From positions 4,752 through 68,751 of the forward strand of contig JAAZNC010000081.1 in the NCBI GenBank assembly GCA_012798455.1: a stretch of DNA of 64,000 nucleotides, written 5' to 3'. Positions 44,452-62,355 of this stretch are shown piece by piece (within the stretch, counting starts at the first letter, position 1; each line of letters opens with the position of its first letter). The DNA is from Chloroflexota bacterium. Lineage in GTDB: Bacteria; Chloroflexota; Anaerolineae; Anaerolineales; Anaerolineaceae. The position numbers were made by a program, and so were the translations under genes. The notes under the pieces were generated by a model, which saw only the letters and a program-made list of their open reading frames with translations, was not told the DNA's origin and searched no databases.

Positions 44452-44544
44452 GGAAATTCCTCTTTTCATTAACTTTATCGTATTTTCAAGCGCCTGCCAA
44501 ATTTCTGATTATAATCAGCCTACCGAAATGGAAATAACCTTGTC

Positions 44545-46239: not shown

Positions 46240-46335
46240 GATATGAATATCTGCCAAACGGTGGATATTTTCGTCTAAATCAATACAATAAAGGAAATGT
46301 TTTCATATCCCATTTATTCAAGATAGGAAAAACCC

Positions 46336-47535: not shown

Positions 47536-47536
47536 C

Positions 47537-48307
47537 ATGCAAGTGCACGAACACAATCAAAAAGCTTGGGATAAAATGGCTGTCGATGGTATCGAATGGT
47601 CCATTCCCATCTCGACCGAGGTGGTCGAGCAAGCCCGTCACGGTAATTGGCAGGTGTTGCTGACCGAATCGAAATACGTGCCACGCACCTGGTTCCCCGC
47701 TGACCTGCAAGGCTTGGAAGTGCTGTGCCTGGCGAGCGGGGGTGGGCAACAAGCGCCCACCCTGGCAGCTGCCGGTGCGCATGTCACCAGCTACGATCTA
47801 TCCATGGAGCAGCTCAAGCGCGACGCTCTGGTTGCGGAACGCGAAGGGCTGGACCTGACCATCGTGCAAGGGGATATGCGCGATCTTGCAGTTTTTCCAG
47901 ACGAACGCTTTGACCTGATCTTCCATCCGGTTTCCAACGTGTTCATCCCGGATGTGCTGCCGGTGTGGCGGGAAGCCTTTCGGGTGCTCAAACACGGGGG
48001 TGTGCTGCTGGCGGGTTTCATGAACCCGCTGGAATATATCTTTGATCCTGAACTGCAAAAGCAGGGTATCTACCAGGCGAAATATCGCCTGCCCTATTCG
48101 GATGTGACCAGCATCACCCCTGAAGAACATGCGCGCCTGTATGGGAAGGATGAAGCCCTGGAGTTCAGCCATACCCTAGAAGAACAGATCGGCGGGCAGC
48201 TTGCGGCGGGTTTCGTGATTACTGGTTTTTACGAATCCGAGCGTGCCAATGATCCCATCGCGCAGTTCATGCCCTCTTATATCGCCACCCGGGCGTTAAA
48301 GGGTTGA
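47537..48307 (+). CDS. class I SAM-dependent methyltransferase
   Basis: VLCLASGGGQQ (motif I), DLS, and FHPVSNVF ... LKHGGVLL. Confidence 0.8.
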   Translation: MQVHEHNQKAWDKMAVDGIEWSIPISTEVVEQARHGNWQVLLTESKYVPRTWFPADLQGLEVLCLASGGGQQAPTLAAAGAHVTSYDLSMEQLKRDALVAEREGLDLTIVQGDMRDLAVFPDERFDLIFHPVSNVFIPDVLPVWREAFRVLKHGGVLLAGFMNPLEYIFDPELQKQGIYQAKYRLPYSDVTSITPEEHARLYGKDEALEFSHTLEEQIGGQLAAGFVITGFYESERANDPIAQFMPSYIATRALKG

Positions 48308-48365
48308 CTTTTCCTGGGTGCCTTTTATACAATCTACTGTATCAAACTTTTACCGGTGCAAGCAA

Positions 48366-49439
48366 ATGAATAAAAAACAAAGATCGATTGTAATAACTCT
48401 CTCTATTCCGCTGCTGATCCTGTTGGTCGCCTGTTCCTTTTCGCTTGATCTGGGCAACCCCACTGCTGACCCGAATGTGACGCCGGTGGCGTTGAACCAA
48501 CCGGTGCAATCCAATCCACAGCAGGATGTTGCCGTAGAAGATCAACTGCAGTTACCGCAGGTGGTGCATGCTATCACTCCAGGCGAACCGGGCAGTGCAG
48601 AACAATCCAAGGATGACATCGATTCCTCTATCACTGCGGATGAGCACTATGCCCTGGGAGATTCTTTCCGCCTGGGTAATTTCGAGCGACCCTTCACCGA
48701 TACCTTGATGGAATACAAACCCGAAACGGACCTGTTGCTGATCGATGTGACCTCGGATGAGGATTTCTATTATTTCACCTTTAGCTTGATTGATAAGAAC
48801 ACGGAATTGGGATATCCATCGGCGTACTACGGCATCGAGTTCGACACCGATTATGATGGGCGCGGAGATTATCTGTTATGGGCACCTGGCGACGCCAACA
48901 CCCAATGGAATACGGATGACGTGATGCTGTTGTATGATAGCAACGATGATGTGGGTGGCACGAATCCGGTGGTGCCGGACGGGCACAAAGGCAATGGCTA
49001 TGATCAGGTGCTGTTCGCGCGCGACGTACAACATGACCCGGATGCCGCTTGGAAGCGCCTTAACCCTTACAGCTCCAGCGCCATCCAACTGGCGGTGAAG
49101 GTGAGCTTGATCAATAATAACCGTTTTTATTGGAAAGCCTGGAGCGATAAGAGCATCATGGATCCCACCAAGTTCGATTATAACGATTGGTATTCGGAAA
49201 GTCAGGCAGGTTCACCCAACAAGAACAGCACGGATTATCCCGTGGCGATGCTCAATCAGGTGGATTCCACCTGCTGGGCAGCCTACAATCTGGAACCGAC
49301 CGGTACGGAGCTGGGTGGTTGCATTGTGAAGCAGGAACTTCAATGCAACTGTGTGAACGTAACCGCGTTAAGCCAGGCTTGCTGCGCCCAATGTGGTCTT
49401 GTTTGGGACAACACGGTTGGTTTCTGTAAGATCAGATAG
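48366..49439 (+). CDS. lipoprotein of unknown function with a Cys-rich C-terminal tail
   Basis: Lipobox (LLVAC) after the ATG at 48366. The C-terminal 60 aa hold 9 Cys, including CNC and CC. Confidence 0.6.
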   Translation: MNKKQRSIVITLSIPLLILLVACSFSLDLGNPTADPNVTPVALNQPVQSNPQQDVAVEDQLQLPQVVHAITPGEPGSAEQSKDDIDSSITADEHYALGDSFRLGNFERPFTDTLMEYKPETDLLLIDVTSDEDFYYFTFSLIDKNTELGYPSAYYGIEFDTDYDGRGDYLLWAPGDANTQWNTDDVMLLYDSNDDVGGTNPVVPDGHKGNGYDQVLFARDVQHDPDAAWKRLNPYSSSAIQLAVKVSLINNNRFYWKAWSDKSIMDPTKFDYNDWYSESQAGSPNKNSTDYPVAMLNQVDSTCWAAYNLEPTGTELGGCIVKQELQCNCVNVTALSQACCAQCGLVWDNTVGFCKIR

Positions 49440-49458
49440 TGAAAGTAAAAAATCTAAG

Positions 49459-49940
49459 AATGTGCGTCTTGTATCTTGAGTGCGCACATCAACCGTCGGA
49501 AGCACCCATAACCTTCCAATATATCATCTTGATAGGTAGGGCGCATTTCCATATGCGCCTGAAAGTAGCGAGAGATCTCACCAATTCCATCTCAATCAAT
49601 TTATAAGTCGCAAATCACAAACCCTTTATAATGTCACCCTATCCCAAGGGCGGTTTTCCATAACCGCCATCGAAAAATCCTATCTCAAGGGCGCATTTCC
49701 ATATACGCCGGAAAAATCTAAGCATCCTTAACCCTCTCCTAATGTCATCTCGAACGAAGTGAGAGATCTCTCCTGATCTTTCTCAATCAACACGTAAGTC
49801 GTAAAGCAATGATCTTGAAAAAACGTCACCCTGAACGGAGTGAAGGGTCTTTCATGTTGTTGTTCATCCATTGTCCAAACCACAATCTCATGCCCTTCTC
49901 ATCCATGTTATCTTGTAAGGTGGTCTTTCGTAACCGCCGA
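49459..49940. repeat. cluster of GC-rich hairpin repeats forming two degenerate tandem copies of a composite element
   Basis: Hairpins occur at 49459-49488, 49539-49558, 49648-49667, 49689-49708 and 49918-49937, three with the identical loop TTCCAT. The blocks GAGAGATCTC, TCTCAATCAA...TAAGTCG and GTCACCCT recur 191 nt apart. Confidence 0.7.
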
Positions 49941-50054
49941 CCATTGCTAACATATTGAGTGCCCATATGAATTCATACCTAGGTTACAAAGTTAAAAGGA
50001 CACTCTAATGGGAACGCTGCAGGGGTGTCAAAGGAAATGAGTGCGAATGAACCA

Positions 50055-50513
50055 TCAAATAGCTGGTTCTTTTGATAGAAATACCCCACGCAATTCCTCC
50101 TTTGTCCTTGCTGCCTTGAGCTTTTCAATACACTCTTCATCCTCTAGTATATTCGCCACCTTCATTAACCCCTGGATATGTTCTTCATGATCGATAGCTG
50201 CCAGCGCGATCACCAGGAATACCGGATCGTTATCCTCATTGCCAAAATTTACCGGCTCTTTCAGGCGCACCACCGCAATGCTGGCGCTGATCACCCCGTC
50301 TTCGGGTTGGGCATGCGGTAGGGCGATACCGGGTGCAACCACGATATAAGCACCGAATTCTTTTGCAACACGGATCATGGCATCAGGAAAGCGCTCTTCC
50401 ACCGTGCCGGCATCAACCATTAATTTCCCCGCTGCTCGGATGGCTTCTTCCCAATTCTTGGCAGCTACACTGATTTCCACGAGCTCCGGTTTGATCAGAT
50501 CTTCTATGTTCAA
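50055..50513 (-). CDS. PTS EIIA, mannitol/fructose/ascorbate (EIIA-2) type
   Basis: GIALPHAQPEDG active-site loop. TTG start at 50513, six nt after AAGGAG. Confidence 0.85.
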   Translation of the reverse strand: MNIEDLIKPELVEISVAAKNWEEAIRAAGKLMVDAGTVEERFPDAMIRVAKEFGAYIVVAPGIALPHAQPEDGVISASIAVVRLKEPVNFGNEDNDPVFLVIALAAIDHEEHIQGLMKVANILEDEECIEKLKAARTKEELRGVFLSKEPAI

Positions 50514-50547
50514 AGATTTCTCCTTGGGATCTTATTTTGGATAATTT

Positions 50548-52491
50548 TCAATTTGCTCCGGTCCATTCCAGTCCCAATTCGACGATCTTCATATTGGTGG
50601 GATTACCGGTAATTACATCCCAGCCTCGTTGCAGATAATATGCACTTTTAGCTTCTTCAAACTCCTGATGATCGAATTTGAACCCATCTGTCGGACCACC
50701 TTGCAAAGGCTCGAACATACGGCTCGGAAGTTGATCTTTCTCGCGAGTGTATCCTTCCCTGGCGTTGAAAATACGCATCAGGTTCACTCGCCGTTCCCCA
50801 ACCGCCAATAATTCATTTAATGTGGTATCCCAACCGGTGATGGAGTTAACGATTTCCGGGACTTCCAGCGGTTCGAATAACCCACCGAAAGTGCCGATCA
50901 CAAATTGGCAATAACACAGACTATCCATCAGGCTGTCGTAATTTTGGGTGATGGATGCGAAACGCATTTTTTCAGCATCCAATGAACGAGGTAAAGTGGG
51001 ATTATTCAATCCAAGCTGCTGGAGAAAAGAAGGGACTGGTGCATTGCTATCCGGATTTTGTTTTTCGTAAAACGGATCATGACCGCTGCTCATATGATCT
51101 GCACCAAACGGGTTGACTGCGTAGATAATGCCTAAACTCACTTTGGCGCGCGGCATATGTGCCGGAATTTCCTGGCGATTTGCTGCTACTACTAATTTAT
51201 CTGATCCCTTCCCCAAAATTTCAGCCGCACGCGCGGACCCAAGCGCCAATAGGTTACCCAAGCGACTACCTGCTGCAATTGCCTCAACCGCTTGTAAATA
51301 AGCTTTGGATTCTCCAAAGCGGAGTTCGATGCCATCCGTATCCTCGAGCGTCAATAGTCCTTTTTCAAAACATTCCATTGCCCAGGCGATCGTTCCGCCA
51401 CAAGAAATGGTGTCAATACCATAGCGATTACAGATCTCATTCGCCTTGGCGATCGTTGGAAAATCGCTGATGCCACATGAACTGCCCATCAATCCCAACG
51501 TCTCGTATTCGGGACCCCCGTAGCGTTTATCAATTGAAAAATTATTGTTGCTGAACTCCACAACGCGTTTACAACGAACCGGGCAGGCAAAACAAGTATC
51601 CCTGCCAAGAGTATCTTGCTTGCCTTCCTCGGCTCCACACAGGTATTGATCGTACATCAGTTCGCCGCTGATTCCATCCGCACCCGTAAATATCCCACTT
51701 TTGAAATTATGAGTGGGTAGTTGACCACTGGCACTCTGACCAAGAACGCTGATGGCAGTACCTAATCTTCCTAAGGATTGAATAGGAGAATCCTTAAACC
51801 TGGTTACACCCTTTTTTGACCAATATTTGAACTGTACCGCATCGGCAACTTTAAAGTTCTTGCGACCCTGACGTCCGCGCACAGCAATGGCTTTTAAATT
51901 CTTGGAACCCATCACTGCCCCCATGCCGGTGCGTCCCACGGTGTGATTGCACATGAACATGATCGAAGCATACCTGACGCCACGTTCACCTGCCGGACCG
52001 ATCTGAGCGACCACGATTCTGTCATCACCTAATTCGACTTTGATCTGATCTTCACACTCGCCGGTAGTTTCTCCCCAAAGATGGCTGGCATATCTGAGCT
52101 CATATTTTCCATCGTCTACCCACAGATAAACCGGTTTGGGTGATTTGCCAGTGAAGATGAAAGCATCGAACCCGGCATATTTCATCTCTGGTGGAAAATA
52201 ACCACCTGCCTGCCCATCACCGATTAGTCCGGTGAGGGGACTCTTGGCAGAAGCCACCACCCGACTTTGTCCGGCAATTGCTGCACCGGTGATCACACTG
52301 ACCGATATGATGAGGACATTCTTTTCACTTAATGGCTCTGTTCCAGTAGGGATCATATTGAATAGATAGTAGCAATTTAATGCACTCCCTCCCAGATATT
52401 TTCGATAAAAGGATTCATGGGGAGTTTCCACTTTGAAGGATTGATGGGTTAGATCGATATGTAAAATCTTGCCGTTATAACCGTAAGGCAT
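50548..52491 (-). CDS. aldehyde:ferredoxin oxidoreductase family enzyme (tungstopterin/4Fe-4S type)
   Basis: AOR N-terminal domain (GKILHIDLT ... YLGGSAL), CFACPVRC cluster motif and GPEYETLG. 647 aa with an AAGGAGG RBS. Confidence 0.9.
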   Translation of the reverse strand: MPYGYNGKILHIDLTHQSFKVETPHESFYRKYLGGSALNCYYLFNMIPTGTEPLSEKNVLIISVSVITGAAIAGQSRVVASAKSPLTGLIGDGQAGGYFPPEMKYAGFDAFIFTGKSPKPVYLWVDDGKYELRYASHLWGETTGECEDQIKVELGDDRIVVAQIGPAGERGVRYASIMFMCNHTVGRTGMGAVMGSKNLKAIAVRGRQGRKNFKVADAVQFKYWSKKGVTRFKDSPIQSLGRLGTAISVLGQSASGQLPTHNFKSGIFTGADGISGELMYDQYLCGAEEGKQDTLGRDTCFACPVRCKRVVEFSNNNFSIDKRYGGPEYETLGLMGSSCGISDFPTIAKANEICNRYGIDTISCGGTIAWAMECFEKGLLTLEDTDGIELRFGESKAYLQAVEAIAAGSRLGNLLALGSARAAEILGKGSDKLVVAANRQEIPAHMPRAKVSLGIIYAVNPFGADHMSSGHDPFYEKQNPDSNAPVPSFLQQLGLNNPTLPRSLDAEKMRFASITQNYDSLMDSLCYCQFVIGTFGGLFEPLEVPEIVNSITGWDTTLNELLAVGERRVNLMRIFNAREGYTREKDQLPSRMFEPLQGGPTDGFKFDHQEFEEAKSAYYLQRGWDVITGNPTNMKIVELGLEWTGAN

Positions 52492-52570
52492 AGGTCCTCC
52501 TTGTGATCAAGGATCAATTACAATATTAAATGAATGGACTGTTCGCTCTAATCCAAGCCAGTGTATGAGT

Positions 52571-52600
52571 CTATAGCAAAACTACTCTTTTAAAGAGTAG
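52571..52600 (-). terminator. weak AU-rich hairpin plus U4 overlapping the stop codon of the PTE-family gene
   Basis: On the minus strand, CUACUCUU-loop-AAGAGUAG followed by UUUUG. It may be a partial terminator between the lactonase and AOR genes. Confidence 0.3.
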
Positions 52601-53514
52601 AACCTGGCAGGATTATGGATCATGAAATTATCAATGGTTTCTTGACTGAATCCTTCATCCAACAAACGCGGTAAGAATTTTTGCTTTATCCACGTCCAGC
52701 CGGGTCCGCCGCCGTAAACGGTGTGATGGGATTTCTTGCCCATGTCGTTGCACAACATGATCTGTTTTTCAAAACCGGCATCGACCAGCTTGCGAAGCAA
52801 CTCCACCCGCATGCTATCAGGGTAGTATTTGGCTTTACCGGGACCATCATAAATGATATAGCAGCCCTTTTCGGCGATCTTCTTGTGGTACCAGAAGTCC
52901 GGATTGCGGTCGAGATGCGCCAGACCGAAACGGGTCAGATCCATTCCTTCCGATTCTACGATTTCGATTTGTTCGAATCCCCAGGTGCCGATTTCTGTAT
53001 GGGTATGAACTGGAACTCCGGTGATCATGGCTGCACGAGCGGCAGCCCGCAGGGCTTTTTCTTGCAGCGGTGTGATGTAGCAGTACATGCTCGCACCCTT
53101 GATCCACCCGGCTTTGATATCCGTACCATCCATTCCGACTGTGATCTCTTTGACGAATAAATCGGTCATTTCTTCAACGGACATTTTCACCATATCCTGG
53201 CAGTTAGCCTGGTTTTCGGCTTCTTTTACAAATCCGGTGCATGCCACAATATGAACACCGCTTTGTTCCGCAGCAACTTTCATACGAGCAGCATCGCGCC
53301 CATCCTGGTAGCGGGGATTGGCATCGATGATTGCATTTCCACCTACTGCTTTATACTCGCGTAAAATTTGTAATTGCTCATTCCAACGATAAAGACTCCA
53401 CTCAATATCAGGTTTCCCATGCCCGGCGATGTCCATAAAAACATGCTCATGTGCCATGGTAAAGCCAAGTTTTGAAGAATCAATATCACCCAAGACTGTT
53501 CTGATCTTTCCCAT
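52582..53514 (-). CDS. phosphotriesterase-homology protein (amidohydrolase COG1735), probable sugar(-phosphate) lactonase
   Basis: GFTMAHEHVFMD (HxH), plus further metal-ligand His and Asp positions along a 310-aa TIM barrel. Confidence 0.85.
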   Translation of the reverse strand: MGKIRTVLGDIDSSKLGFTMAHEHVFMDIAGHGKPDIEWSLYRWNEQLQILREYKAVGGNAIIDANPRYQDGRDAARMKVAAEQSGVHIVACTGFVKEAENQANCQDMVKMSVEEMTDLFVKEITVGMDGTDIKAGWIKGASMYCYITPLQEKALRAAARAAMITGVPVHTHTEIGTWGFEQIEIVESEGMDLTRFGLAHLDRNPDFWYHKKIAEKGCYIIYDGPGKAKYYPDSMRVELLRKLVDAGFEKQIMLCNDMGKKSHHTVYGGGPGWTWIKQKFLPRLLDEGFSQETIDNFMIHNPARFYSLKE

Positions 53515-53601
53515 AATGTGACCTCGCTAAAAATTTCGTAGAAAGTGATTTTTGTTATCGTAAATGTGGGTATCTAAAAAGTCAACTATTTGGCGCTCAA
53601 A

Positions 53602-53652
53602 GCACAAATACTATAAATGCACAAATGTGCATTATCTACAAATGTGATATCT
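53602..53652. promoter_or_regulatory. three tandem 17-bp direct repeats (GCACAAATA.../GCACAAATG.../CTACAAATG...) containing the inverted repeat AATGCACA-AA-TGTGCATT (53616-53633)
   Basis: Seen directly. It lies between two divergent promoters, about 30-40 nt upstream of each -35 box. Confidence 0.4.
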
Positions 53653-53664
53653 GGACCACCTTTG

Positions 53665-53693
53665 TTGACAAAAAATTTTTGCGATACTAGTAT
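53665..53693 (+). promoter_or_regulatory. sigma70-type promoter for the EIIC-EIIB unit
   Basis: TTGACA (53665-53670), a 17 nt spacer, then TAGTAT (53688-53693). Confidence 0.5.
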
Positions 53694-53828
53694 TTTTTCA
53701 TAGAAATCATATTAGAGAATTTCAATTCGGGAGGTGCACAGAAATAAATGTATTAACAAGTGTTTGAAAAATGTGAATTATTCACAACAAAAGAATATCT
53801 TATTAGATTATTAAGAAAGGTGGTAAAA

Positions 53829-55328
53829 ATGTTTCTCACCGCATGGAATTGGTTTTTAACAAATGTTTTTACAAAACCGGCGTGGTTTCTCGGATTAATG
53901 GTATTCATTGGATGCCTTCTTATTAAGAAACCCATTTATGAGGCATTTGCCAGTTTTGTAAAGGCAGTGGTGGGCTATATGATCTTCAGTGTGGCTTCAA
54001 GTGGCATGGTAACAGCCTTCCGACCGATCCTCTTTGCTCTCAACGGGCGGTTTAATCTCGAGGCTGCTGTGATTGATCCATATTTTGGAGCAGCTCCTTT
54101 ACAGAAATCCATCACGGAAATTGCCGGTAGACCCATGAGCATAGCGACCCTGGCAATGATCATCGGCTTTGCCATCAACATTTTCCTGGTTTATTTTAAA
54201 AAGCAGACCAAAGTACGCTCCCTTATGGTAGGTGGTCATGTCATGAACTTGGGATCATGGGGAATCATTGCCTATATCGTTTTAATGATCCCGAACATCA
54301 GCGATCTGGGTGCCATCATTGCCGGTGGTCTTCTCTGTGGTTTGACCTGGGGCGTCTTTTCTAACCTGACGGTTGAACCAACCCAGGAATTGACCGATGG
54401 GGCAAGCATTGCTGTAGGGCATGCCCAGATGACAGGGGTATACATCTTTGACAAACTTTCCACATGGATCGGCAATAGGGATAAAAAGAAAGGCAAAGAA
54501 ATCAAAAGAATCGGCGAGATCAAACTTCCTGGTTTCTTTTCCATTATGAATGACACCACTGTAGCAGCCTCGATTGTCATGCTGCTTTTCTTTGGTGGCA
54601 TGATGCTGATCATCGGGAAAGAATATATGCTGACCGTGGATGAATCGCTGGCGACCCAGACCTGGGGTTTTTATCTGACTGAAAAATGTCTCACCTTTGT
54701 GGTCTACTTAAACATTATCATCCTGGGTATCAAGATGTTCGTGGGTGAATTAACTGAAGCTTTCACCGGCATCTCCCAAAAGATCTTGCGTGGAGCAATT
54801 CCGGCAGTGGATATCGCAGCCACTTTTGGTTTTACCGAGGGCAGTGTGGTTACTTTGGGCTTTTTGTTCGGTGGATTGGGATCCATCATCGCGATCATAT
54901 TATCAGTCTTGCTAAAGAGCCCAATCCTGGCGATCGTCGGATTCATCCCGATGTTCTTCGATAACGGTGGTATTGCCACTTTTGCTAATAATAAGGGTGG
55001 TTTAAAAGCAGTGATCATCTCCACCCTGATTGTTGGTATGGTGCACGTCTTTGGTGGAGGGCTCTACGCTTACTTCTATGGATTCTCCAAATTCGGTGGT
55101 GCAGCAGCCAACTTCGATATTGCAGCATGGCATACCCTGATGGGTGTCATCATGAAGAACTTGGGTATTGTTGGGATAGGGTTGATCTGTCTGGTGTTGA
55201 TCATCATCCCGCAAATCCAGTATCTACGGCACAAAGACACCTATTTCTTAGTGGTAGATAATTACGAGAAGTACAAAGAAGTCATGGCAAAGAAAGCCAG
55301 TGCCAAGTTAGCAGCGAAGAAGAATTAA
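53829..55328 (+). CDS. PTS ascorbate-family EIIC permease (UlaA/SgaT-like) with a C-terminal Lys/Ala-rich tail
   Basis: Polytopic and UlaA-like throughout. The start was moved to the ATG at 53829, after AAGGTGG. Confidence 0.85.
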   Translation: MFLTAWNWFLTNVFTKPAWFLGLMVFIGCLLIKKPIYEAFASFVKAVVGYMIFSVASSGMVTAFRPILFALNGRFNLEAAVIDPYFGAAPLQKSITEIAGRPMSIATLAMIIGFAINIFLVYFKKQTKVRSLMVGGHVMNLGSWGIIAYIVLMIPNISDLGAIIAGGLLCGLTWGVFSNLTVEPTQELTDGASIAVGHAQMTGVYIFDKLSTWIGNRDKKKGKEIKRIGEIKLPGFFSIMNDTTVAASIVMLLFFGGMMLIIGKEYMLTVDESLATQTWGFYLTEKCLTFVVYLNIIILGIKMFVGELTEAFTGISQKILRGAIPAVDIAATFGFTEGSVVTLGFLFGGLGSIIAIILSVLLKSPILAIVGFIPMFFDNGGIATFANNKGGLKAVIISTLIVGMVHVFGGGLYAYFYGFSKFGGAAANFDIAAWHTLMGVIMKNLGIVGIGLICLVLIIIPQIQYLRHKDTYFLVVDNYEKYKEVMAKKASAKLAAKKN

Positions 55329-55369
55329 AAGTAGGATAAGATTTCTCAGCAGAAAAAGGAGTTAGAAAA

Positions 55370-55678
55370 ATGACGCTTAAGGTTTTAGCTGCATGCGGAC
55401 AAGGGTTGGGAAGTTGCCAGATCATTACCATGAAATTGAATACGGTTTTCAAGAAAATAGGCATTGATGCCAAAGTGACCTCAAGTAATGTTTCAATGGC
55501 AAAATCAACTGCTGCCAGTTACGATGTTTTATTTTGTGGACAAACACTGGTGCCCAATTTTAAAACCGCTGAATCAAAAGGCGTCGTTGTCATTGGACTA
55601 AAGAACATAGTTTCTGAGAAAGAAATGGAAGAAAAGATCCGGGAAGCTATCGCCAGTGGCAAAATCAAGGCCGAGTAA
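55370..55678 (+). CDS. PTS ascorbate-family EIIB (UlaB/SgaB-like)
   Basis: KVLAACGQGLGSC phospho-Cys loop and an AAGGAG RBS. Confidence 0.8.
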   Translation: MTLKVLAACGQGLGSCQIITMKLNTVFKKIGIDAKVTSSNVSMAKSTAASYDVLFCGQTLVPNFKTAESKGVVVIGLKNIVSEKEMEEKIREAIASGKIKAE

Positions 55679-55688
55679 TTGACCGAAC

Positions 55689-55730
55689 AGCGGAGGGTGC
55701 CCAAGCCGTACCCTCCGCTTGTTTATTTTC
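55689..55730 (+). terminator. rho-independent terminator after EIIB
   Basis: AGCGGAGGGT ... ACCCTCCGCT stem followed by TGTTTATTTT. Confidence 0.7.
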
Positions 55731-55831
55731 ATTTCAAATATCCAAAGCTTTCAATCTCCTGAACGCTGGTGTGGATTGAATAATTCTGTAAAGAAAACAA
55801 ATAATCTTAAATTATTTAAAGAGGATCCCCC

Positions 55832-56926
55832 ATGAAATTGCTATGTATCATTGAAAAGAGAATTCCCGCCCTGGAAGAACCCATCATGCGATTCGCAAAG
55901 CAATTCAAGGGTGTTGAAGTGGTTGAATCCTTATGGGATGACCCGAGCGAAGCGGATATCACGACGGTATTCCGCCGCATAGAGCAACACGGACCGGCGG
56001 GCGAACCCATTCCCCAGGGATTTAAAGACCATCGTGATGCAGAATTGCTGGCTGGCAGTTTTTGCCCCTTCTCCGCGCAGGGGATGGATGTGTTTGAGAA
56101 CCTGCGGATGATCGGTGTCATCCGTGCTGGGCTGGAAAACATTGATGTGAAAGCCGCCAGCGAGCGCGGCATCGCGGTCGTGAATGCCACGGGGCGAAAT
56201 GCCGACGCAGTATCGGATTTCGCGATCGGTATGATGCTTGCGGAAGCCCGCAACATCGCCCGTGCCCATCACTCCATCATCAGCGGCGGATGGCAGGTGG
56301 ATTTTGCGAGCAGCACTACCACTCCGGACATGCGTGGGAAGACGATCGGTTTGTTCGGATTCGGGGTGATTGGGAAAGCGCTGGCTGAAAAATTGAGCGG
56401 ATTCCATATTAACTTGCTGGTATTTGACCCATTCATCCAGGAAGATGTAGTTGCTCCTTATGGGGGAAAGCTGGTCGATAAAACGACTTTATTCCGAGAA
56501 TCGGATTTCATCAGTGTCCATGCCAGACTGACCAGTGAAAACCAGCACATCATTGGCAAAGCGGAATTCGAGCTGGTGAAACCCAGCGCTTACTTCATCA
56601 ACACCGCCAGGGCGGGGTTGGTGGATTATGGCGCACTCTATGAAGCTCTTGCAACACATCGTATCGCTGGCGCCGCGCTGGATGTCTTTGACAATGAACC
56701 ACTCCCCGCAGATGACCGCTTCCGGAAACTGGATAATGTCACCCTGACCACGCACCGGGCAGGTGCTACCCTGGATGCCGCCAACAATTCCCCGCGCCTG
56801 ATCTTTGAGCGAATGCGCAGCATCATCACAGGAAAAGCGACGGATGGATTTGTAAATCCGCAGGTTTTGGAAGATTCGAGATTCCGGAACTGGCGAGAAA
56901 CAGCAAAAATCAAACTGAATTTATAA
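55832..56926 (+). CDS. D-isomer-specific 2-hydroxyacid dehydrogenase (phosphoglycerate dehydrogenase-like)
   Basis: GLFGFGVIGKAL Rossmann motif, the SVHARLT ... NTARAG ... ALDVF motifs and a catalytic THRAG region. Confidence 0.85.
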   Translation: MKLLCIIEKRIPALEEPIMRFAKQFKGVEVVESLWDDPSEADITTVFRRIEQHGPAGEPIPQGFKDHRDAELLAGSFCPFSAQGMDVFENLRMIGVIRAGLENIDVKAASERGIAVVNATGRNADAVSDFAIGMMLAEARNIARAHHSIISGGWQVDFASSTTTPDMRGKTIGLFGFGVIGKALAEKLSGFHINLLVFDPFIQEDVVAPYGGKLVDKTTLFRESDFISVHARLTSENQHIIGKAEFELVKPSAYFINTARAGLVDYGALYEALATHRIAGAALDVFDNEPLPADDRFRKLDNVTLTTHRAGATLDAANNSPRLIFERMRSIITGKATDGFVNPQVLEDSRFRNWRETAKIKLNL

Positions 56927-56944
56927 AAAAGGAGAGAACCTTCT

Positions 56945-57700
56945 ATGGATCTTGAATTAACAGGGAAAATTGCAATTGTCACTGGAGGAGCGAGGGGGAT
57001 CGGCGCTGGCATGTGTGAAGTTTTTGCCGAAGAGGGTGCCAATGTTGTTATTGCCGATATGGTACCTCTGGAAGAATCGAGCAAATTTGCGGCGGAGTTA
57101 AGTAAAAAGAACAGTGTACGCACACTTGCTGTCAGAGCTGATATCTCCAACCCCCCAAGTGTGGATGCCATCTACAGCCAAACGCTGGAAAAATTTGGCA
57201 CGGTCGACATTCTGATGAACAACGCAGGCAAAATGGGAGTGACCAAGATCGAGGATGTGACCGTCGAGGAACTTTATAAATACGAGAAGGTGAACATTGA
57301 GGGCATGTTCTTGATGAGCAAAGCCTTCATCAAGATTTGTAATGAGCAAAAAAAAGGTGGGCATATCGTCAACACCATATCCAAATCTGCCTTTACAACT
57401 AACAGTGGCGGAAACACACCTTACATTGCAACCAAAGGTGCCGTATTTTCTTTCACACGCGGATTGGCGAAAGAAGTCGGTTCGCGGGGCATCTTCGTGA
57501 ACGGAATTGTGCCGGGATACGTGATCACTGATACGACCAAGAACCTTAAGGATAGATCCAAAGAGATGAAAAAGATCATCCCGCTGGGGCGTGAAGCTAC
57601 GCCGCGTGAGATCGCCAATGTAGCGGTTTTTTTATGTTCTCCCAAAGCGGTTCAAATGATGGGCGCCATCGTAGATGTGAGTGGTGGAACCATGCTGTAA
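56945..57700 (+). CDS. short-chain dehydrogenase/reductase (SDR)
   Basis: TGGARGIG, NNAG and YIATKGA (YxxxK). Confidence 0.9.
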   Translation: MDLELTGKIAIVTGGARGIGAGMCEVFAEEGANVVIADMVPLEESSKFAAELSKKNSVRTLAVRADISNPPSVDAIYSQTLEKFGTVDILMNNAGKMGVTKIEDVTVEELYKYEKVNIEGMFLMSKAFIKICNEQKKGGHIVNTISKSAFTTNSGGNTPYIATKGAVFSFTRGLAKEVGSRGIFVNGIVPGYVITDTTKNLKDRSKEMKKIIPLGREATPREIANVAVFLCSPKAVQMMGAIVDVSGGTML

Positions 57701-57757
57701 TATCTTTTTCCGATCTTCCATAGATCGAGAGATTTTCACAGCTCAAGGAGCAAAAAA

Positions 57758-57791
57758 GCACCCGATTGCTGCTAGTAATCGGGTGCTTTTT
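57758..57791. terminator. bidirectional terminator between the SDR gene and the convergent aldolase gene
   Basis: GCACCCGATT ... AATCGGGTGC stem flanked by an A tract and a T tract. Confidence 0.7.
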
Positions 57792-57830
57792 CATTTGTAG
57801 TTACTAACTGAAATAATAAAGAAAGATCCT

Positions 57831-58616
57831 TTATTTGATCTCTTTGAGGGCTTCTTCAACGGATGCGTTTTCATGCACAATGCCATGTAACGCCGCTGCC
57901 ATACCAGCGATGCTGCGGTGTCCCCACACGTTGCGCCCGATCACCAGCCCTTTGCATCCGGCGTCAATTGCCTGCTTTGCGTTTTCCAGCACCTGGCGGT
58001 CGTCATCGACCTTTGCACCTCCCAGTGCCAGTACATCCGCATAACAATTGGCGACGATTTTCTTGAAATCCTCCACGGGTTTGATGAACGCAGTTTTGAC
58101 GATGTCCACACCGATCTCTGCACCTGCACGGCATGCGATATTCATGGCCTTCAGACTTCGGTCTTCTTCTTTGGATGAAAATCCATTGGGCAACATTTCA
58201 GCAGCGGTAATAAGACCGTATTGATTGCAGGCAGCTACAATTCCGGCAATATACTTCAGGTTCGCAGTATCAAATTCCGCGCCAATGATGCCCATGGTCA
58301 TGATGCCATCCACTCCCAGGCGCAAGCAATCTTCAACGGTATAGGGACTTTGCATGGGTCTCTCAAGGATGGGATTGTATTTCACAAGCCCAGAACCAAT
58401 CACCTCCATGCGCAACAGGGTTCCCATTCTGCCGATCTCTTTTCGAAAATGGGTGAGCACACCGTAATTGGTGAGAATGCCATCCATGCCGCCTTCCGCA
58501 GCACCCTTGATCACTTTAGCGGGATCTACCCAGATATCGCCGCTGCCCCCGTGATCGAAAGCCAGGATGAGTGCCCTTCCGTCTTCTTTGAATAACCGGT
58601 AATATCTACTTTTCAT
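57831..58616 (-). CDS. class I aldolase of the DhnA/FbaB/LsrF (DeoC-fold) family
   Basis: ALILAFDHG, and a TIM-barrel length and pattern typical of DhnA-type aldolases. The start was moved to the ATG at 58616, five nt after AAGGTG. Confidence 0.78.
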   Translation of the reverse strand: MKSRYYRLFKEDGRALILAFDHGGSGDIWVDPAKVIKGAAEGGMDGILTNYGVLTHFRKEIGRMGTLLRMEVIGSGLVKYNPILERPMQSPYTVEDCLRLGVDGIMTMGIIGAEFDTANLKYIAGIVAACNQYGLITAAEMLPNGFSSKEEDRSLKAMNIACRAGAEIGVDIVKTAFIKPVEDFKKIVANCYADVLALGGAKVDDDRQVLENAKQAIDAGCKGLVIGRNVWGHRSIAGMAAALHGIVHENASVEEALKEIK

Positions 58617-58661
58617 TTCTGCACCTTTCATGTTTTGTATTTAAATAAATCAAGTTGACAG

Positions 58662-59315
58662 TTAATTCCACAAGGAATCGATCTTTGCTTTAACACGGCG
58701 TGCTTCTGCCGCCGGGTCAGGCGCATTGCGAACGGAACGTCCGCAAATGATGGCGAAAACAGGCAACCCCTTCAAGATATCCAGGTCCTCAAAAGTCACC
58801 CCACCGGTTACCGTAACGGAGACTCCCAATTCACATAGTTCATGGATCTCTTTGGTATCTTCCGTATTCCAATTTCCTTTGCGTGAACGAGGGCGCGAAT
58901 AGATAATGTGGGAAATCCCCATTTGTTGCCAGGCATGCACATCTTGCGGGCTTGGGAACTGATTGTAAAGTTCGATTTGAACTTGTTGCCCTTTTCCTCT
59001 ATTCAAAGCTTCTTCGCTGATCAACTTTGGCACCTGAGCTTCAGCACCGGAGAGCACGGTGACAAAATCAGGATCATGTTTGAGGATCTCGGTACCGAAA
59101 TGGGGAGCAATACATTTGAAATCAGCCACCAGCAATTTCTGCGGATAGATTGTGCGCAGAATGTCAACAGCGCGCAATCCTTCACCAAGCAGCAACAAGG
59201 TACCCACCTCGATGATATCCACGCTTTCATCCAGTCCACCCCCCAGGACGCGTAGAGCATCTTCAATGGAAAGATTATCGAGAGCAATTTGCAATAGCGG
59301 TTTAGGTTTATTCAT
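58662..59315 (-). CDS. 3-keto-L-gulonate-6-phosphate decarboxylase / 3-hexulose-6-phosphate synthase family protein (UlaD-like)
   Basis: LLQIALDN, DIIEVGT, VADFK, VQIEL and VTVTGG, collinear with E. coli UlaD as I recall it. The start was moved to the ATG at 59315. Confidence 0.8.
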   Translation of the reverse strand: MNKPKPLLQIALDNLSIEDALRVLGGGLDESVDIIEVGTLLLLGEGLRAVDILRTIYPQKLLVADFKCIAPHFGTEILKHDPDFVTVLSGAEAQVPKLISEEALNRGKGQQVQIELYNQFPSPQDVHAWQQMGISHIIYSRPRSRKGNWNTEDTKEIHELCELGVSVTVTGGVTFEDLDILKGLPVFAIICGRSVRNAPDPAAEARRVKAKIDSLWN

Positions 59316-59488
59316 AGCATCCACCATGTGAATAGATTGAATGATGTAACATGACTATCCTAATGACATTCTAATTCCAATGGGATATGGGTCAATTACC
59401 TGGTGTTGTTTTTCACAAATGGTTAGTTTGGTCAATTGTGCAATTCTGGTAATTATCCATTCTCGATACTATATAATGAATTGGAATA

Positions 59489-59504
59489 TGTGCAATATTG
59501 CACA
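59489..59504. promoter_or_regulatory. perfect 16-bp palindrome TGTGCAATATTGCACA just downstream of a TATAAT box, in front of the third sorC gene
   Basis: Seen directly. A related copy AATTGTGCAATT lies at 59434-59445, and a TATAAT box at 59472-59477. Confidence 0.45.
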
Positions 59505-59543
59505 ATCCTTCTCATTGGTCTGGCTGGACGAAAGGAAGTCTTG

Positions 59544-60485
59544 ATGAATGCTGATCAGAATGTCTATGAAGTGGCACGTCTTTATTATGAACAGAATATG
59601 ACTCAAGAAGAAATTGCCAAACGCTTGTTCATCTCACGTTCGGGCATTTCAAGGATAATCAAACAGGCTCGCGATGAAGGAGTGGTGGAGATCACCGTTC
59701 ATTCTCCGTATGATCGTATGCGTACCATGGAATACGAATTCTTCAAACGTTTTCATATTGATGAGATCCGCATTGTGGATACCGACAAACAACCTAATCC
59801 CTCTGATTTTGACACGGTCGTAAAGCTGGCTGCCACCTATATCAATTCGATATTGAACGATAATTCTGTTTTGGGACTTACCTGGGGAAAATCGATCATG
59901 GGAGCCATCTGGGAATTGCGCCCGACTCGTTATCTTCCCAAAATGCACGTCACCCAAATGACCGGTTCGATCGAGAGCAACAACCCGATTATCGATGGGC
60001 CGGATCTGGTGCGCCATGTGGCGGAGTTGTATGGCTGTAACTATCACTATCTGATGGTACCTTTCTCTGTGGAAAACAGAGTGGTGCGCGATAGCCTGGC
60101 GAAACGCCCCAGTGTGATCGAAACTCTCTCCATTGCCGAAAATGCCAATGTACTGGTAACCGGCATCGGATCCAAAACCCATTGGGGAAATTACATGAAG
60201 GAAAAAGAGCTGAAAGCACTTGAAGATGCCGGTGCCATTGGTTATGTGGCTGGATACTATTTTGATATTCACGGCAATATCATCGATCTGCCTGATTTTT
60301 ACGACCGTATCATCTGTGTCAGCCAAAACGTTTTTTCGAAGATAGAATTCCGGATCGCAGTGATCGCAGACGTAGTGAAAGCAACTGCCGTATTGGGAGC
60401 TTTAAGAGGAAGGCTGATCAATTCACTGATCACCAGTTCTAACGTAGCCAGCCAGATCATAGAACTTGATGACAAAAATAAATAA
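59544..60485 (+). CDS. SorC/DeoR-type sugar-binding transcriptional regulator
   Basis: HTH (YYEQNMTQEEIAKRLFISRSGISRII) plus a SorC effector domain. The start was moved to the ATG at 59544, after AAGGAAG. Confidence 0.85.
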   Translation: MNADQNVYEVARLYYEQNMTQEEIAKRLFISRSGISRIIKQARDEGVVEITVHSPYDRMRTMEYEFFKRFHIDEIRIVDTDKQPNPSDFDTVVKLAATYINSILNDNSVLGLTWGKSIMGAIWELRPTRYLPKMHVTQMTGSIESNNPIIDGPDLVRHVAELYGCNYHYLMVPFSVENRVVRDSLAKRPSVIETLSIAENANVLVTGIGSKTHWGNYMKEKELKALEDAGAIGYVAGYYFDIHGNIIDLPDFYDRIICVSQNVFSKIEFRIAVIADVVKATAVLGALRGRLINSLITSSNVASQIIELDDKNK

Positions 60486-60761
60486 AGGCGGAAGTTTTTA
60501 AATGTAATTGAAAGAATTATATGTTCGTACCTTTATTAATGCATTCCCTGTTTTACTCAAAAAAAATGTTATCGTGAAAATGGAAATGTCATGTATAAAA
60601 ATGGGTTAGTATTGCTTCTTTCACTCGGGATAATGCCTCTTTCTACCTCCATTTATGGGAGAGGAGGAGTAGTTCACTGTGTATGAAATGACAGTAGTTA
60701 AAATAGATCCTCCTTGAATTTGTAAAAAGAGGATCTATGTATAACTAATTAAAATCAATGT

Positions 60762-62270
60762 TCAGCGCATCTGAATAACCGCACCGCTGCGCGCCGGTAG
60801 ATCGATTTCGAGCATATTCCCTTTGTAGTTGAGCTGCGCTGTTCCAAAAATGGTGTGCGGGATATTGTTGTTTCTTGCCAACGCGGAAATTTCGATCTGC
60901 AAGCTTCCTGTGTTGTGAGTGATGTTGAAGACTGCAACCAGATATTCCTCATCTGTTTGGCGGGCAATGGCGATCACCCCACCCCCGTTGTAGAGTGGGA
61001 AATATTCGCCATGCCGCAGCGCGTTGTGCTGCTTGCGTAGTGCGATGCAAGCTTTCACAAAATCTAAACGTTCCATGTTCCAACGGCTTTCATCCCACAC
61101 CATTGTCTTGCGGCATTCCGGGTCATTGCGCCCGCTCATGCCGATCTCATCGCCATAAAAGATGCAAGGAGCTCCTGGATAGCAGAACATGAACAATAAC
61201 GCCATCTTGAATGCGTCTTCATCCCCTTTGGCAGAGGTGATGAAGCGCGGGGTGTCGTGGCTGTTGAGCAGGTTCAACATCACCGCATTGATGGCAGGAT
61301 CGTACAACCCCTGTAAATAGGCGATGCGCTCCATGAACTGCTCATTGCTGAGTTGCTGCAGGTATTTGTGATAGTCGCCTACCGAGTAGATCTGTTCTTC
61401 CAGATCATCGATGAAGAAACCCAGCATGGCACCTGAAAGCGGGTAGTTCATGACCGCGTCGAACTGGTCACCCTGCAGCCAGGGCTGGCTTTCATACCAG
61501 ATCTCTCCCACAATATAGGCATCCGGATTGACATTTTTCACCCGCCGGCGGAATTCCTGCCAGAAGGCAGCATCCGTGATCTCGAAAGCCACATCGATGC
61601 GCCAGCCATCGATGCCGAATTTGACCCAGTATTCGGCGACATTCCACAAGAATTCCCGCACCGCCGGATTTTGGATATTGAATTTGGGTAGAGCGGGCAT
61701 GCCATACCAACCGCGGTAACCGCAGATTTCCATGTCAGATTTTACCTTACGCAGTTCTTCCAACTGCTGGTCGGTGGGATAAGCCAGGAAGGGCTCTTTC
61801 CTCTGTAATTGTTCTTCCCGAAAATTGAACCAGTCCACGTATGGGGAATCGCTGCCGCTTTCAAGAGTGTGGTTGAATTGCAGGAACCCGCGGCTGGCGT
61901 GATTGAATACCCCATCCAGCAACACCCGCAACCCGCGCGCATGAGCCTGGTCAAGCAGTTCCCTGAAGGCTTTATTGCTGCCCAAGAGCGGATCGACGTT
62001 GAAATAATCATAAGTGTGGTAGCGGTGATTGGAAGCGGAGGTGAAGATGGGATTCAGGAAAATGGCGGTGACACCCAGGTCAACCAGGTGATCGAGGTGT
62101 TCGATGATTCCCAACAGGTCCCCACCCTTAAACCCATAAACAGAAGGAGGAGAATCCCAACTCTCCAGATTGAGGTCGTCTTTTTTTAAATGACTGCTTC
62201 TTGCAAAGCGGTCAGGAAAGATTTGATAGAAAACGGCATCTTTTACCCATGCCGGAGTTGAAATATTCAT
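60762..62270 (-). CDS. GH13 alpha-amylase-family enzyme (neopullulanase/cyclomaltodextrinase/alpha-glucosidase-like), cytoplasmic
   Basis: GH13 regions I-IV are present: DGVFNH, GWRIDVAFE, GEIW and NSHDTPR. The N-terminus reads VFYQIFPDRF. The start was moved to the ATG at 62270. Confidence 0.9.
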   Translation of the reverse strand: MNISTPAWVKDAVFYQIFPDRFARSSHLKKDDLNLESWDSPPSVYGFKGGDLLGIIEHLDHLVDLGVTAIFLNPIFTSASNHRYHTYDYFNVDPLLGSNKAFRELLDQAHARGLRVLLDGVFNHASRGFLQFNHTLESGSDSPYVDWFNFREEQLQRKEPFLAYPTDQQLEELRKVKSDMEICGYRGWYGMPALPKFNIQNPAVREFLWNVAEYWVKFGIDGWRIDVAFEITDAAFWQEFRRRVKNVNPDAYIVGEIWYESQPWLQGDQFDAVMNYPLSGAMLGFFIDDLEEQIYSVGDYHKYLQQLSNEQFMERIAYLQGLYDPAINAVMLNLLNSHDTPRFITSAKGDEDAFKMALLFMFCYPGAPCIFYGDEIGMSGRNDPECRKTMVWDESRWNMERLDFVKACIALRKQHNALRHGEYFPLYNGGGVIAIARQTDEEYLVAVFNITHNTGSLQIEISALARNNNIPHTIFGTAQLNYKGNMLEIDLPARSGAVIQMR

Positions 62271-62355
62271 AGTAGAAGCTCTTTTCAAAGTCAGAATTAG
62301 CAAAACTTTTTAATAGACAGCTGGTTGCTTGACAAATTTCCTTACGATCGCCTGG

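Follow-up and report, generated by a model that had tools for sequence, protein, structure and literature searches.

E. coli uses L-ascorbate anaerobically by means of the ula regulon (UlaABC, UlaG, UlaD, UlaE, UlaF and UlaR). In its fucose and rhamnose catabolism, as in archaeal branched Entner–Doudoroff pathways, an aldolase releases a free aldehyde along with a triose phosphate or pyruvate. The aldehyde is either reduced (by FucO) or oxidized (by AldA in E. coli and, for glyceraldehyde in the archaea, by the oxygen-sensitive aldehyde:ferredoxin oxidoreductase, AOR). Known AORs are general aldehyde scavengers, or act in amino-acid or aromatic metabolism. They oxidize a broad range of aldehydes, which for the AOR-family WOR1 of E. 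limosum includes lactaldehyde, a 2-hydroxy aldehyde (PMC11725836). Replacement of UlaG by a PTE-family enzyme has been proposed for mycoplasmas, based on the gene context of ula-like operons (PMC4866288).

Here, we describe a ten-gene island in an Anaerolineae genome of an uncultured sludge bacterium (117 contigs, 95.5% complete; source metagenomes labeled sludge and sediment). The analyzed stretch of DNA, 64 kb long, is referred to as the window. Besides PTS enzyme I and HPr, the host genome encodes seven members of the AOR family and four PTE-family lactonases. Judged by sequence comparison, the chances are slightly better than even that the island represents a rare form of the Ula pathway and serves, as a single system, the catabolism of a sugar-acid lactone resembling ascorbate. 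The original prediction that a PTS pathway with an AOR had so far gone uncharacterized agrees with our literature search, which found no paper describing such an AOR-containing PTS sugar pathway.

Gene content and control regions

Open reading frames, together with Pfam and NCBIfam profile searches, bear out the ten genes originally predicted, at matching positions; both terminators also lie where they had been placed, and the gaps of 90 nt (PTE to AOR) and 34 nt (AOR to EIIA) are exact. Chance does not account for the arrangement: all ten genes recur in unchanged order in three other contigs (L001, L002 and L141) and nine of the ten in a fourth (L048), with flanks that differ among these loci.

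The ascorbate/galactitol-type EIIC (EIIC-GAT; 53760..55328, plus strand; PF03611, 261 bits) scores 405 bits on NF009552, under the cut-off, and probably starts at ATG 53829, giving a 499-aa product like that of L001. It is followed by EIIB (55370..55678, plus strand; PF02302, 50 bits) and, 3′ of it, a terminator-like hairpin (55689..55719, plus strand; 12-pair stem with 8 G-C pairs, T run). The ascorbate/mannitol-type EIIA (50055..50513, minus strand; PF00359 (PTS_EIIA_2), 123 bits) forms the end of the opposite operon, where a TTG start and an AAGGAG ribosome-binding site follow the AOR stop; EIIA is likewise found 3′ of AOR in L001, L002 and L141.

Two dehydrogenases are encoded beyond the EIIB hairpin. 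The first, of the D-isomer 2-hydroxyacid dehydrogenase family (55832..56926, plus strand; PF02826 and PF00389), carries an 80-aa extension at its N terminus and has phosphoglycerate dehydrogenases and glyoxylate reductases as best PDB matches; the genes of its relatives (40–54% identity) nearly always adjoin a class II aldolase gene and usually an FGGY kinase gene too. The second, a short-chain dehydrogenase/reductase (SDR; 56945..57700, plus strand; PF13561 and PF00106), comes nearest in NCBIfam to the glucose 1-dehydrogenase subfamily, whose cut-off of 215 bits it misses with a score of 200. A bidirectional terminator-like hairpin (57753..57791; 18-pair stem) lies between the SDR gene and the converging gene for a DhnA/DeoC-type class I aldolase (57831..58631, minus strand; PF01791). 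The best PDB match of this aldolase is MJ0400 (2QJG; 141 bits), and its DIVKT motif, whose Lys is presumably the Schiff-base lysine, aligns to DIVKT of 2QJG. Its subfamily is small, with about 47 clusters at ≥55% identity in 5.8 billion proteins.

The place of UlaG is taken, as predicted, by a putative phospho-sugar lactonase of the PTE family (COG1735; 52582..53514, minus strand; PF02126, 235 bits). Its best solved match is the phospho-sugar lactonase Lmo2620 of Listeria (3PNZ; 201 bits), followed by E. coli Php (1BF6; 174 bits) and 3OVG (148 bits). The enzyme scores 178 bits on the ‘phospho-furanose lactonase’ model NF045706, under its 630-bit equivalog cut-off, so its substrate may be another lactone than that of these relatives. 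The swap is not peculiar to the island: a more canonical set, PTE-EIICBA-UlaD-UlaE-UlaF, is found on another host contig (C56), and PTE-UlaD-UlaE-UlaF in Mammaliicoccus lentus and others. UlaE and UlaF are indeed missing from the island, as the C56 proteins found no match on the island contig.

The UlaD-like decarboxylase (OMPdecase family; 58662..59327, minus strand) represents a distinct subtype, scoring 176 bits on NF009832 (cut-off 250); the HxlA model gives 83 bits against these 176 bits for the KGPDC subfamily. Aligned to E. coli KGPDC (1KV8, in the residue numbering that we assume for it), it retains Glu33, Asp62, Lys64, Glu112, Arg139 and Thr169, with Ser replacing His136. Position 136 is Ser or Asn in 11 of 11 aldolase-linked UlaD-like homologues and His in all three that sit with UlaE and UlaF.

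A SorC/DeoR-type regulator with an HTH and a sugar-binding domain (59436..60485, plus strand; PF04198, 168 bits) occupies the same position in all island loci, and probably starts at ATG 59544 (313 aa, like L002 and L048). The region separating the divergent promoters of PTE and EIIC holds the operator-like palindrome TGCACAAATGTGCA (53618..53631); only two exact palindromes of its kind, this one included, occur in the 64 kb (shuffle mean 0.025). A further operator-like palindrome, TGTGCAATATTGCACA (59489..59504), lies between UlaD and SorC. In L001, L002, L048, L140 (a further island locus, see below) and L141, the corresponding regions hold a counterpart of TGCACAAATGTGCA with one mismatch and palindromes related to TGTGCAATATTGCACA, respectively. 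A near-palindrome of the TGCACA-NN-TGTGCA type occurs in both control regions in 6/6 island loci examined, and three of its five matches (≤2 mismatches) in the window fall in these two regions. The recurrence in both control regions therefore suggests that they belong to one regulon, whose probable controller is the island's own SorC-type regulator.

Distribution of the AOR and of an Fe-ADH

The AOR (50548..52491, minus strand; 647 aa; AFOR_N 239 bits, AFOR_C 371 bits) is closest among solved structures to 1AOR (340 bits), followed by FOR (239 bits), BamB (181 bits) and WOR5 (173 bits). The residues aligned to the CxxCxxxC motif, a later Cys, the Glu of GPEYE and a His of the P. furiosus enzyme, which we take to be its cluster ligands and catalytic residues, show no variation among 16 homologues. 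Calling the enzyme tungsten-type had been an assumption; sequence cannot tell tungsten from molybdenum. No AorA/AorC-type partner genes adjoin the island AOR. Matches to the gene also occur among short contigs whose source runs are filed as sludge metatranscriptomes, a weak hint of expression.

Its predicted membership in the lactonase–EIIA operon holds up, and its surroundings are conserved: the AOR lies between lactonase and EIIA in all four other contigs, at 85% (L001), 81% (L002), 71% (L048) and 81% (L141) identity. An AGGAGG ribosome-binding site precedes it in five loci, and no conserved terminator lies between PTE and EIIA; a hairpin found at the PTE stop consists of coding sequence and has not been retained in L001. 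The island AORs form a single clade (100% support). In 4/4 places read, homologues of the nearest clade (60–65% identity) are found among sugar-related genes or next to them, with an MFS transporter after the AOR in all four, a ROK regulator in three, and FGGY kinases, an ABC sugar transporter and an aldolase in two. Among 80 homologues at 36–55% identity, none had island genes nearby, nor sugar genes as defined by the panel chosen for the analysis.

Seven sister islands (L136, L137, L142, L144, L147, L148 and L149) are free of AOR and carry an Fe-ADH-2HADH-SDR operon instead. They retain the lactonase, both dehydrogenases and the regulator, the decarboxylase in six of seven cases, and usually the aldolase. 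The nearest models of their Fe-ADH, an iron alcohol dehydrogenase, are YqhD (265 bits) and FucO (150 bits); a search of the host genome for an ortholog found none (best match 28% identical). In a dehydrogenase tree, the AOR form makes up one supported clade, and the forms outside it carry the YqhD/FucO-like Fe-ADH, which speaks against an island built around the AOR, as first described. One member nested inside the AOR clade, L140 (PTE 95% identical), has an island with no AOR, EIIA or Fe-ADH beside it; by this placement, it has lost AOR and EIIA. The AOR is thus dispensable in cis and is, by this comparative reading, an add-on to the island, not its core. The either/or pattern does not count as statistically independent evidence, because the exchange of Fe-ADH for AOR seems to have happened just once in evolution.

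A second, independent pairing occurs on host contig C12: mannose-family PTS genes, a Zn-ADH and a DhnA aldolase come first, then, after a 72-nt gap, an AOR that sits on a different tree branch from the island AORs, and finally SorC. Such adjacency is rare in the class: checked by eye across 301 genomes, the 150 AOR matches listed (68 further matches lie outside this list) gave one possible extra case (G069, 6 kb apart).

A proposed route and its alternatives

On balance, we lean toward an AOR that oxidizes, with ferredoxin, a small free aldehyde released together with DHAP by the aldolase. The EIICBA transporter would take up and phosphorylate the substrate, the PTE-family lactonase would open the ring in UlaG's stead, and decarboxylation of a 3-keto acid phosphate would fall to the UlaD-type enzyme. 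Standing in for the UlaE/UlaF epimerases, the two NAD(P) dehydrogenases might shift the carbonyl to the position adjoining the phosphorylated carbon, allowing the class I aldolase to yield DHAP and a small unphosphorylated aldehyde. The AOR, predicted to share a transcript with the lactonase and EIIA on either side, would convert this aldehyde to the acid and pass electrons to ferredoxin, playing in the anaerobe the part of E. coli AldA; in the sister islands, the Fe-ADH would correspond to FucO or YqhD. The lactaldehyde oxidation by WOR1 sets a substrate precedent for such a step. A route using all genes could run from L-xylulose-5-P via xylitol phosphate to D-xylulose-1-P, then to DHAP and glycolaldehyde, and on to glycolate, although we know of no precedent for a polyol phosphate as the substrate of a 2-hydroxyacid dehydrogenase. 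Of the scheme first put forward, the final step, oxidation of an aldolase-derived aldehyde, is favored by the comparative evidence; substrate, step order and the identity of the aldehyde we infer.

We consider it rather unlikely that the AOR is instead a general aldehyde detoxifier, which landed with EIIA behind the lactonase gene by chance and performs no pathway step. The seven AOR paralogs of the host, the 80 distant homologues away from such sugar genes and the AOR-free L140 would fit this, as would published Anaerolineaceae genome papers, which treat AORs as generic aldehyde oxidizers (PMC5481317). However, five loci, with AOR identities as low as 71%, keep the gene flanked by two others of the pathway, and the AOR shares operator-like palindromes with the decarboxylase/aldolase control region, alternates with an aldehyde-reducing Fe-ADH among islands, and has a parallel in the aldolase–AOR pair of the C12 PTS operon. 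An AOR working in reverse, with reduced ferredoxin driving a sugar-acid carboxylate or the acid of another step to the aldehyde, is very improbable. The pathway does handle acids, and AOR-family enzymes are reversible and able to reduce them, but acid reduction is thermodynamically costly and the island encodes no partner for ferredoxin regeneration; since the Fe-ADH of the sister islands is of the aldehyde reductase type, the aldehyde would be there to be disposed of, not made.

We give hardly any credence to a UlaD-like enzyme that acts as a hexulose-phosphate-synthase-type lyase, releasing formaldehyde for the AOR to oxidize as FOR does. UlaD and HPS share a suprafamily, the island enzyme lacks His136 and FOR belongs to the AOR family; yet the KGPDC model outscores HxlA, the AOR is closer to 1AOR than to FOR, and the retained Glu112, Arg139 and Thr169 reportedly mark KGPDC rather than HPS in mutant work from the Gerlt laboratory. 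Formaldehyde release would also leave the aldolase without explanation. It is just as improbable that the host's AORs are inactive for want of a pterin cofactor. MoaA, MoaC and MoeA were not found in the 95.5%-complete host assembly, nor did ORFs from the MoaC region of a same-family genome (G208) match it, but cofactor genes usually cluster and could therefore vanish together in one gap of an assembly of 117 contigs. All seven AOR genes are intact, as are the aligned Cys, Glu and His of the island copy, and the metatranscriptome matches add their weak hint of expression.

Comparison with known systems

Like the E. coli ula regulon, the island combines EIIC-GAT, EIIB and EIIA with a lactonase step and a UlaD-family decarboxylase, in divergent operons under a local repressor. 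It differs in its PTE-family lactonase (UlaG is a metallo-beta-lactamase), its SorC-type regulator (UlaR is DeoR-type), and the Ser at position 136 of its decarboxylase; UlaE and UlaF are missing, and two dehydrogenases, a class I aldolase and an AOR are added. The lactonase finds its best solved relatives in the PTE-family phospho-sugar lactonases Listeria Lmo2620, Mycoplasma MS53_0025 (3OVG) and E. coli Php. The AOR belongs to the same two-domain fold family as P. furiosus AOR (1AOR), Aromatoleum 8C0Z and E. limosum WOR1 but, unlike known AORs, is a constant component of a PTS sugar-acid operon. Together with its sisters, the island shows the same alternation between reducing and oxidizing an aldehyde as the FucO/AldA fork and the archaeal AOR route; it departs from these systems in its entry through a PTS and a lactone, its DhnA-type aldolase and a ferredoxin-using oxidizing branch in a bacterium.

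Gene content of the island and its host

The gene content given in the original prediction was borne out in full, each gene being recovered at its predicted position by the ORF list together with Pfam and NCBIfam scans. On the minus strand, these scans identify a PTS EIIA (50055-50513), a protein of the AOR family in which both AFOR domains are present (50548-52491), and a PTE-family protein, a putative COG1735 lactonase (52582-53514). The ORF list also reproduces the predicted spacing, with gaps of 90 nt between the PTE and AOR genes and 34 nt between AOR and EIIA. Divergent from these genes, on the plus strand, are genes for EIIC (ascorbate/galactitol family) and EIIB, the latter followed at its 3′ side by a strong terminator-like hairpin (55689-55719). 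Past this hairpin, and still on the plus strand, lie a D-2-hydroxyacid dehydrogenase (2HADH) and an SDR. A bidirectional hairpin (57753-57791) precedes the genes converging on the SDR from the minus strand. These encode a decarboxylase resembling UlaD and a class I aldolase of the DhnA/DeoC type, and the gene of a SorC-type regulator is oriented away from both. For EIIC and SorC, the probable starts are at 53829 and 59544, respectively, later than in the longest ORFs, which gives lengths matching those called in relatives. Downstream of EIIA, the stretch 49440-50054 contains no ORFs and is rich in repeats. Within it, contigs of four sequencing runs match only 31-33-nt pieces (49742-49772 and 49822-49854) and then diverge; because these contigs continue into unlike sequence, the pieces must also occur at other places, in this genome or in the community.

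The closest named homologs come from metagenome bins of Anaerolineaceae and Anaerolineae, and near-identical DNA was found in metagenomes labeled sludge and sediment. The host assembly (2.68 Mb, 117 contigs, 95.5% complete) encodes seven AOR-family and four PTE-family proteins. Its genes for PTS enzyme I and HPr adjoin each other, so a PTS can work in this host. No MoaA, MoaC, or MoeA gene for pterin-cofactor synthesis was found in this assembly. In a complete genome of the same family, MoaC is present, and the ORFs flanking it there lack matches in the host assembly. The missing genes may reflect an assembly gap.

The AOR and its conserved place in the island

Enzymes of the AOR family, the tungsto- or molybdopterin aldehyde:ferredoxin oxidoreductases, are common in anaerobes, and to our knowledge a physiological substrate has been established for few of the bacterial ones. 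The island protein has the architecture of the family over its full length (AFOR_N 239 bits, AFOR_C 371 bits). Against solved structures, it scores best with Pyrococcus furiosus AOR (1AOR, 340 bits), followed by FOR (239), BamB (181), and WOR5 (173), and the GAPOR model gives 30 bits; these bit scores make it a candidate member of the AOR clade proper. In an alignment with 1AOR, C300, C303, C307, C528, E328/E330, and H466 are invariant across 16 homologs. We take the four cysteines to be the [4Fe-4S] ligands and the remaining positions to correspond to the catalytic Glu313 and His448 of the P. furiosus enzyme. AOR-family enzymes oxidize 2-hydroxy aldehydes such as lactaldehyde (PMC11725836).

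The neighborhood of the AOR is kept on other contigs. Four of these show the same gene order, with AOR directly after the lactonase gene (AOR identities of 85% in L001, 81% in both L002 and L141, and 71% in L048), and their flanks are unlike one another; in L048, EIIA is absent and EIIB is present twice. The AOR ribosome-binding site, AGGAGG, is conserved. A candidate terminator between PTE and AOR (scan match 52600-52582) was dismissed, being built from the last PTE codons and absent in L001. Exact palindromes of the form TGCACA-N-TGTGCA or TGTGCA-N-TGCACA occur only twice in the 64-kb window (0.025 expected from shuffled sequence), once in the PTE/EIIC control region (53618-53631) and once in the UlaD/SorC control region (59489-59504). 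When up to two mismatches are allowed, the motif is present in both control regions at all six island loci, with only five matches in the whole window. These two regions are therefore probably part of a single regulon with SorC as its predicted regulator, and the shared palindromes, read this way, speak against independent transcription of the AOR. A weak hint of island transcription comes from two runs filed as metatranscriptomes (X19 and X20), in which contigs of 150-300 nt are identical to EIIA, AOR, PTE, EIIC, and UlaD, and from a contig of a third run (X17, which may be DNA) that spans 52407-52636 and bridges the PTE-AOR gap; such contigs show neither strand, level, nor a single transcript, and stretches that they leave uncovered carry no meaning. 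No riboswitch, whether of the Moco/Tuco type or another, was matched by Rfam in 44000-64000 at E up to 0.1.

The island AOR clade, which comprises ten clusters, has 100% support and lies within a larger well-supported group, in which the other members sampled are 60-65% identical. Four loci of these relatives (L003, L049, L050, and L051) place AOR among or beside sugar-related genes: all four have an MFS transporter after AOR, three a ROK regulator, and two a combination of FGGY kinases, an ABC sugar transporter, and an aldolase. The MFS transporters are not a shared element, as those beside the AORs, the one beside the PTE of sister island L136, and the one at 46336-47535 of the window are mutually unrelated. 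In the AOR group next out (55-56% identity), no genes of the island/sugar panel lie nearby. A sugar link of AORs in general was likewise rejected, since 80 species-representative loci (36-55% identity) have no such panel genes in their vicinity.

Contig C12 of the host assembly carries a second AOR-PTS operon (L052:1397-8794, minus strand). Its tightly spaced genes run in the order EIIB-sorbose, EIIC-Sor, EIID (mannose/sorbose family), Zn-ADH, EIIA-Man, DhnA-type aldolase, AOR, and SorC, with AOR starting 72 nt after the aldolase. A Zn-ADH is also found near one of the two FGGY-kinase AOR loci. The C12 AOR is 49% identical to that of the island and sits on a different tree branch; this operon is a second, independent case of an aldolase and an AOR in a PTS context within the host genome. 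Elsewhere in the class, aldolase-AOR pairing is rare: a by-eye comparison of contig names across 301 Anaerolineae genomes gave one possible extra case among the 150 AOR matches listed (68 more exist), with the two genes 6 kb apart on contig C9 of genome G069. A third host AOR, on contig C44 (L053:3291-9779), is 48% identical to that of the island and has a context of nucleoside or ribose genes, with GntR, a PRAI-like protein, a PfkB kinase, a nucleoside hydrolase, and an EamA transporter encoded ahead of it.

Sister islands and a proposed order of the pathway

A metagenome scan with the island 2HADH, together with two look-ups, retrieved seven further islands. PTE, 2HADH, and SDR are common to all seven; UlaD and SorC occur in six, of which three also have the aldolase. 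None of the seven carries an AOR; in each, an iron alcohol dehydrogenase (Fe-ADH) heads the 2HADH-SDR operon, with YqhD (265 bits) and FucO (150 bits) as its nearest models. The AOR, around which the original prediction had the island built, is thus a lineage-specific member rather than its core. In the tree of 2HADH sequences, the islands with AOR form one clade (support 96/98) with the Fe-ADH islands outside it, and the switch between the two enzymes looks like a single event on this tree. Nested inside the AOR clade is L140, a locus with neither AOR nor Fe-ADH in cis, which has lost AOR and EIIA. Its PTE is 95% identical to that of the island (L140:1-7703), and the genes converging on it encode a ribose-type ABC transporter, a 4Fe-4S protein, a PfkB kinase, and an esterase. 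The host assembly encodes no ortholog of the sister-island Fe-ADH.

The constant set consists of a transporter, the lactonase, a subtype of UlaD, two dehydrogenases, usually a DhnA aldolase, SorC, and one aldehyde-acting enzyme. Since 2HADH and SDR are kept with either an oxidizing or a reducing aldehyde enzyme, they would act before the aldehyde rather than on its acid product. The wider relatives of 2HADH (L150-L212, 40-54% identity) almost always have a class II aldolase following them and, in most cases, an FGGY kinase nearby; this cluster is widespread, and its context suits a role of the dehydrogenase in making the substrate for an aldolase. For the SDR, the best model is glucose 1-dehydrogenase (200 bits, cut-off 215), and in an alternative order the SDR may be a sugar 1-dehydrogenase acting ahead of the lactonase. 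The aldolase has the DeoC/DhnA fold (PF01791) and scores below the cut-offs of all equivalog models; the lysine of its DIVKT motif, presumably the Schiff-base lysine, aligns with MJ0400. Its subfamily is small, at about 47 clusters, and includes a protein (P0294) from the cultured Oscillibacter sp. MSJ-2 that is 55% identical to it.

With both dehydrogenases placed between decarboxylase and aldolase, a route using every gene would convert a lactone-6-phosphate into a 3-keto acid 6-phosphate, which would be decarboxylated to L-xylulose-5-phosphate. Reduction of the latter would give a xylitol phosphate, and its oxidation at the carbon adjacent to the phosphate group would give D-xylulose-1-phosphate, which might then be split by aldol cleavage into DHAP and glycolaldehyde. 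The AOR would oxidize glycolaldehyde to glycolate, and in the sister islands Fe-ADH would reduce it instead. We tentatively put forward, as a rather unlikely proposal, a new ascorbate-type ending in which two dehydrogenases turn the pentulose-5-phosphate made by the decarboxylase into a ketose-1-phosphate that a class I aldolase cleaves to DHAP and glycolaldehyde, without epimerization to D-xylulose-5-phosphate, and in which a dedicated ferredoxin-linked AOR oxidizes the glycolaldehyde. If true, low-potential electrons would be gained from sugar-acid carbon, and a bacterial AOR clade would acquire a defined physiological substrate and pathway. The conserved place of the AOR in a sugar-acid operon, beside an aldolase, suggests glycolaldehyde, glyceraldehyde, or a similar compound as its candidate substrate. 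Oxidizing such an aldehyde rather than reducing it would shift the fermentation redox and hydrogen balance of a host whose DNA occurs in sludge and sediment metagenomes. Papers on Anaerolineaceae genomes treat AORs as generic (PMC5481317); in our literature searches, we found none in which a PTS sugar pathway includes an AOR and nothing joining AOR, glycolaldehyde, and aldolase.

Comparison with the ascorbate (Ula) pathway

The predicted replacement of UlaG by a PTE-family protein holds, as the island has no gene for a metallo-beta-lactamase-type lactonase. The protein, a putative phospho-sugar lactonase, matches PF02126 (235 bits), its HEH motif, of the HxH metal-binding form, aligns with 3PNZ (Listeria Lmo2620), and it reaches 178 bits with NF045706 (cut-off 630); no paper was found on Lmo2620 as a lactonase. 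Its subfamily is continuous from 94% to 52% identity and includes cultured bacteria. Relatives at 53-58% identity occur in plain PTE-UlaD-UlaE-UlaF clusters, one with an ABC transporter and, in Mammaliicoccus lentus, one with a KdgT-family permease and a PfkB kinase. The epimerases UlaE and UlaF, which lead to D-xylulose-5-phosphate, are indeed missing from the island; the host copies are on contig C56 (L054:4247-13013), in a canonical-like ula set with a PTS (PTE-EIIC-EIIB-EIIA-UlaD-UlaE-EIIC-UlaF) from which SorC and a HAD hydrolase diverge. These clusters, that on C56 included, make PTE in place of UlaG a common arrangement, one already proposed for mycoplasmas (PMC4866288).

The UlaD-like decarboxylase of the island scores 176 bits with the model for UlaD, the 3-keto-L-gulonate-6-phosphate decarboxylase (cut-off 250), and keeps the aligned Mg and Lys residues, with Ser in place of His136. 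In UlaD numbering, aldolase-linked homologs have Ser or Asn at 136 together with a short deletion, and those linked to UlaE/UlaF have His; the UlaD of C56 keeps His136 and has Arg at the Lys64 position. Because position 136 and the deletion follow the aldolase linkage, the island decarboxylase represents a distinct subtype. The branch could be solved in vitro, as every enzyme but the AOR should tolerate oxygen. Compared with the Ula pathway, the EIIC-GAT, EIIB, and EIIA of the island are UlaABC-type at the family level, below the equivalog cut-offs, and together with its Fe-ADH sisters the island constitutes a rare, uncharacterized Ula-type branch in which a PTE lactonase, a DhnA aldolase, and two dehydrogenases accompany a UlaD subtype carrying Ser or Asn at position 136.
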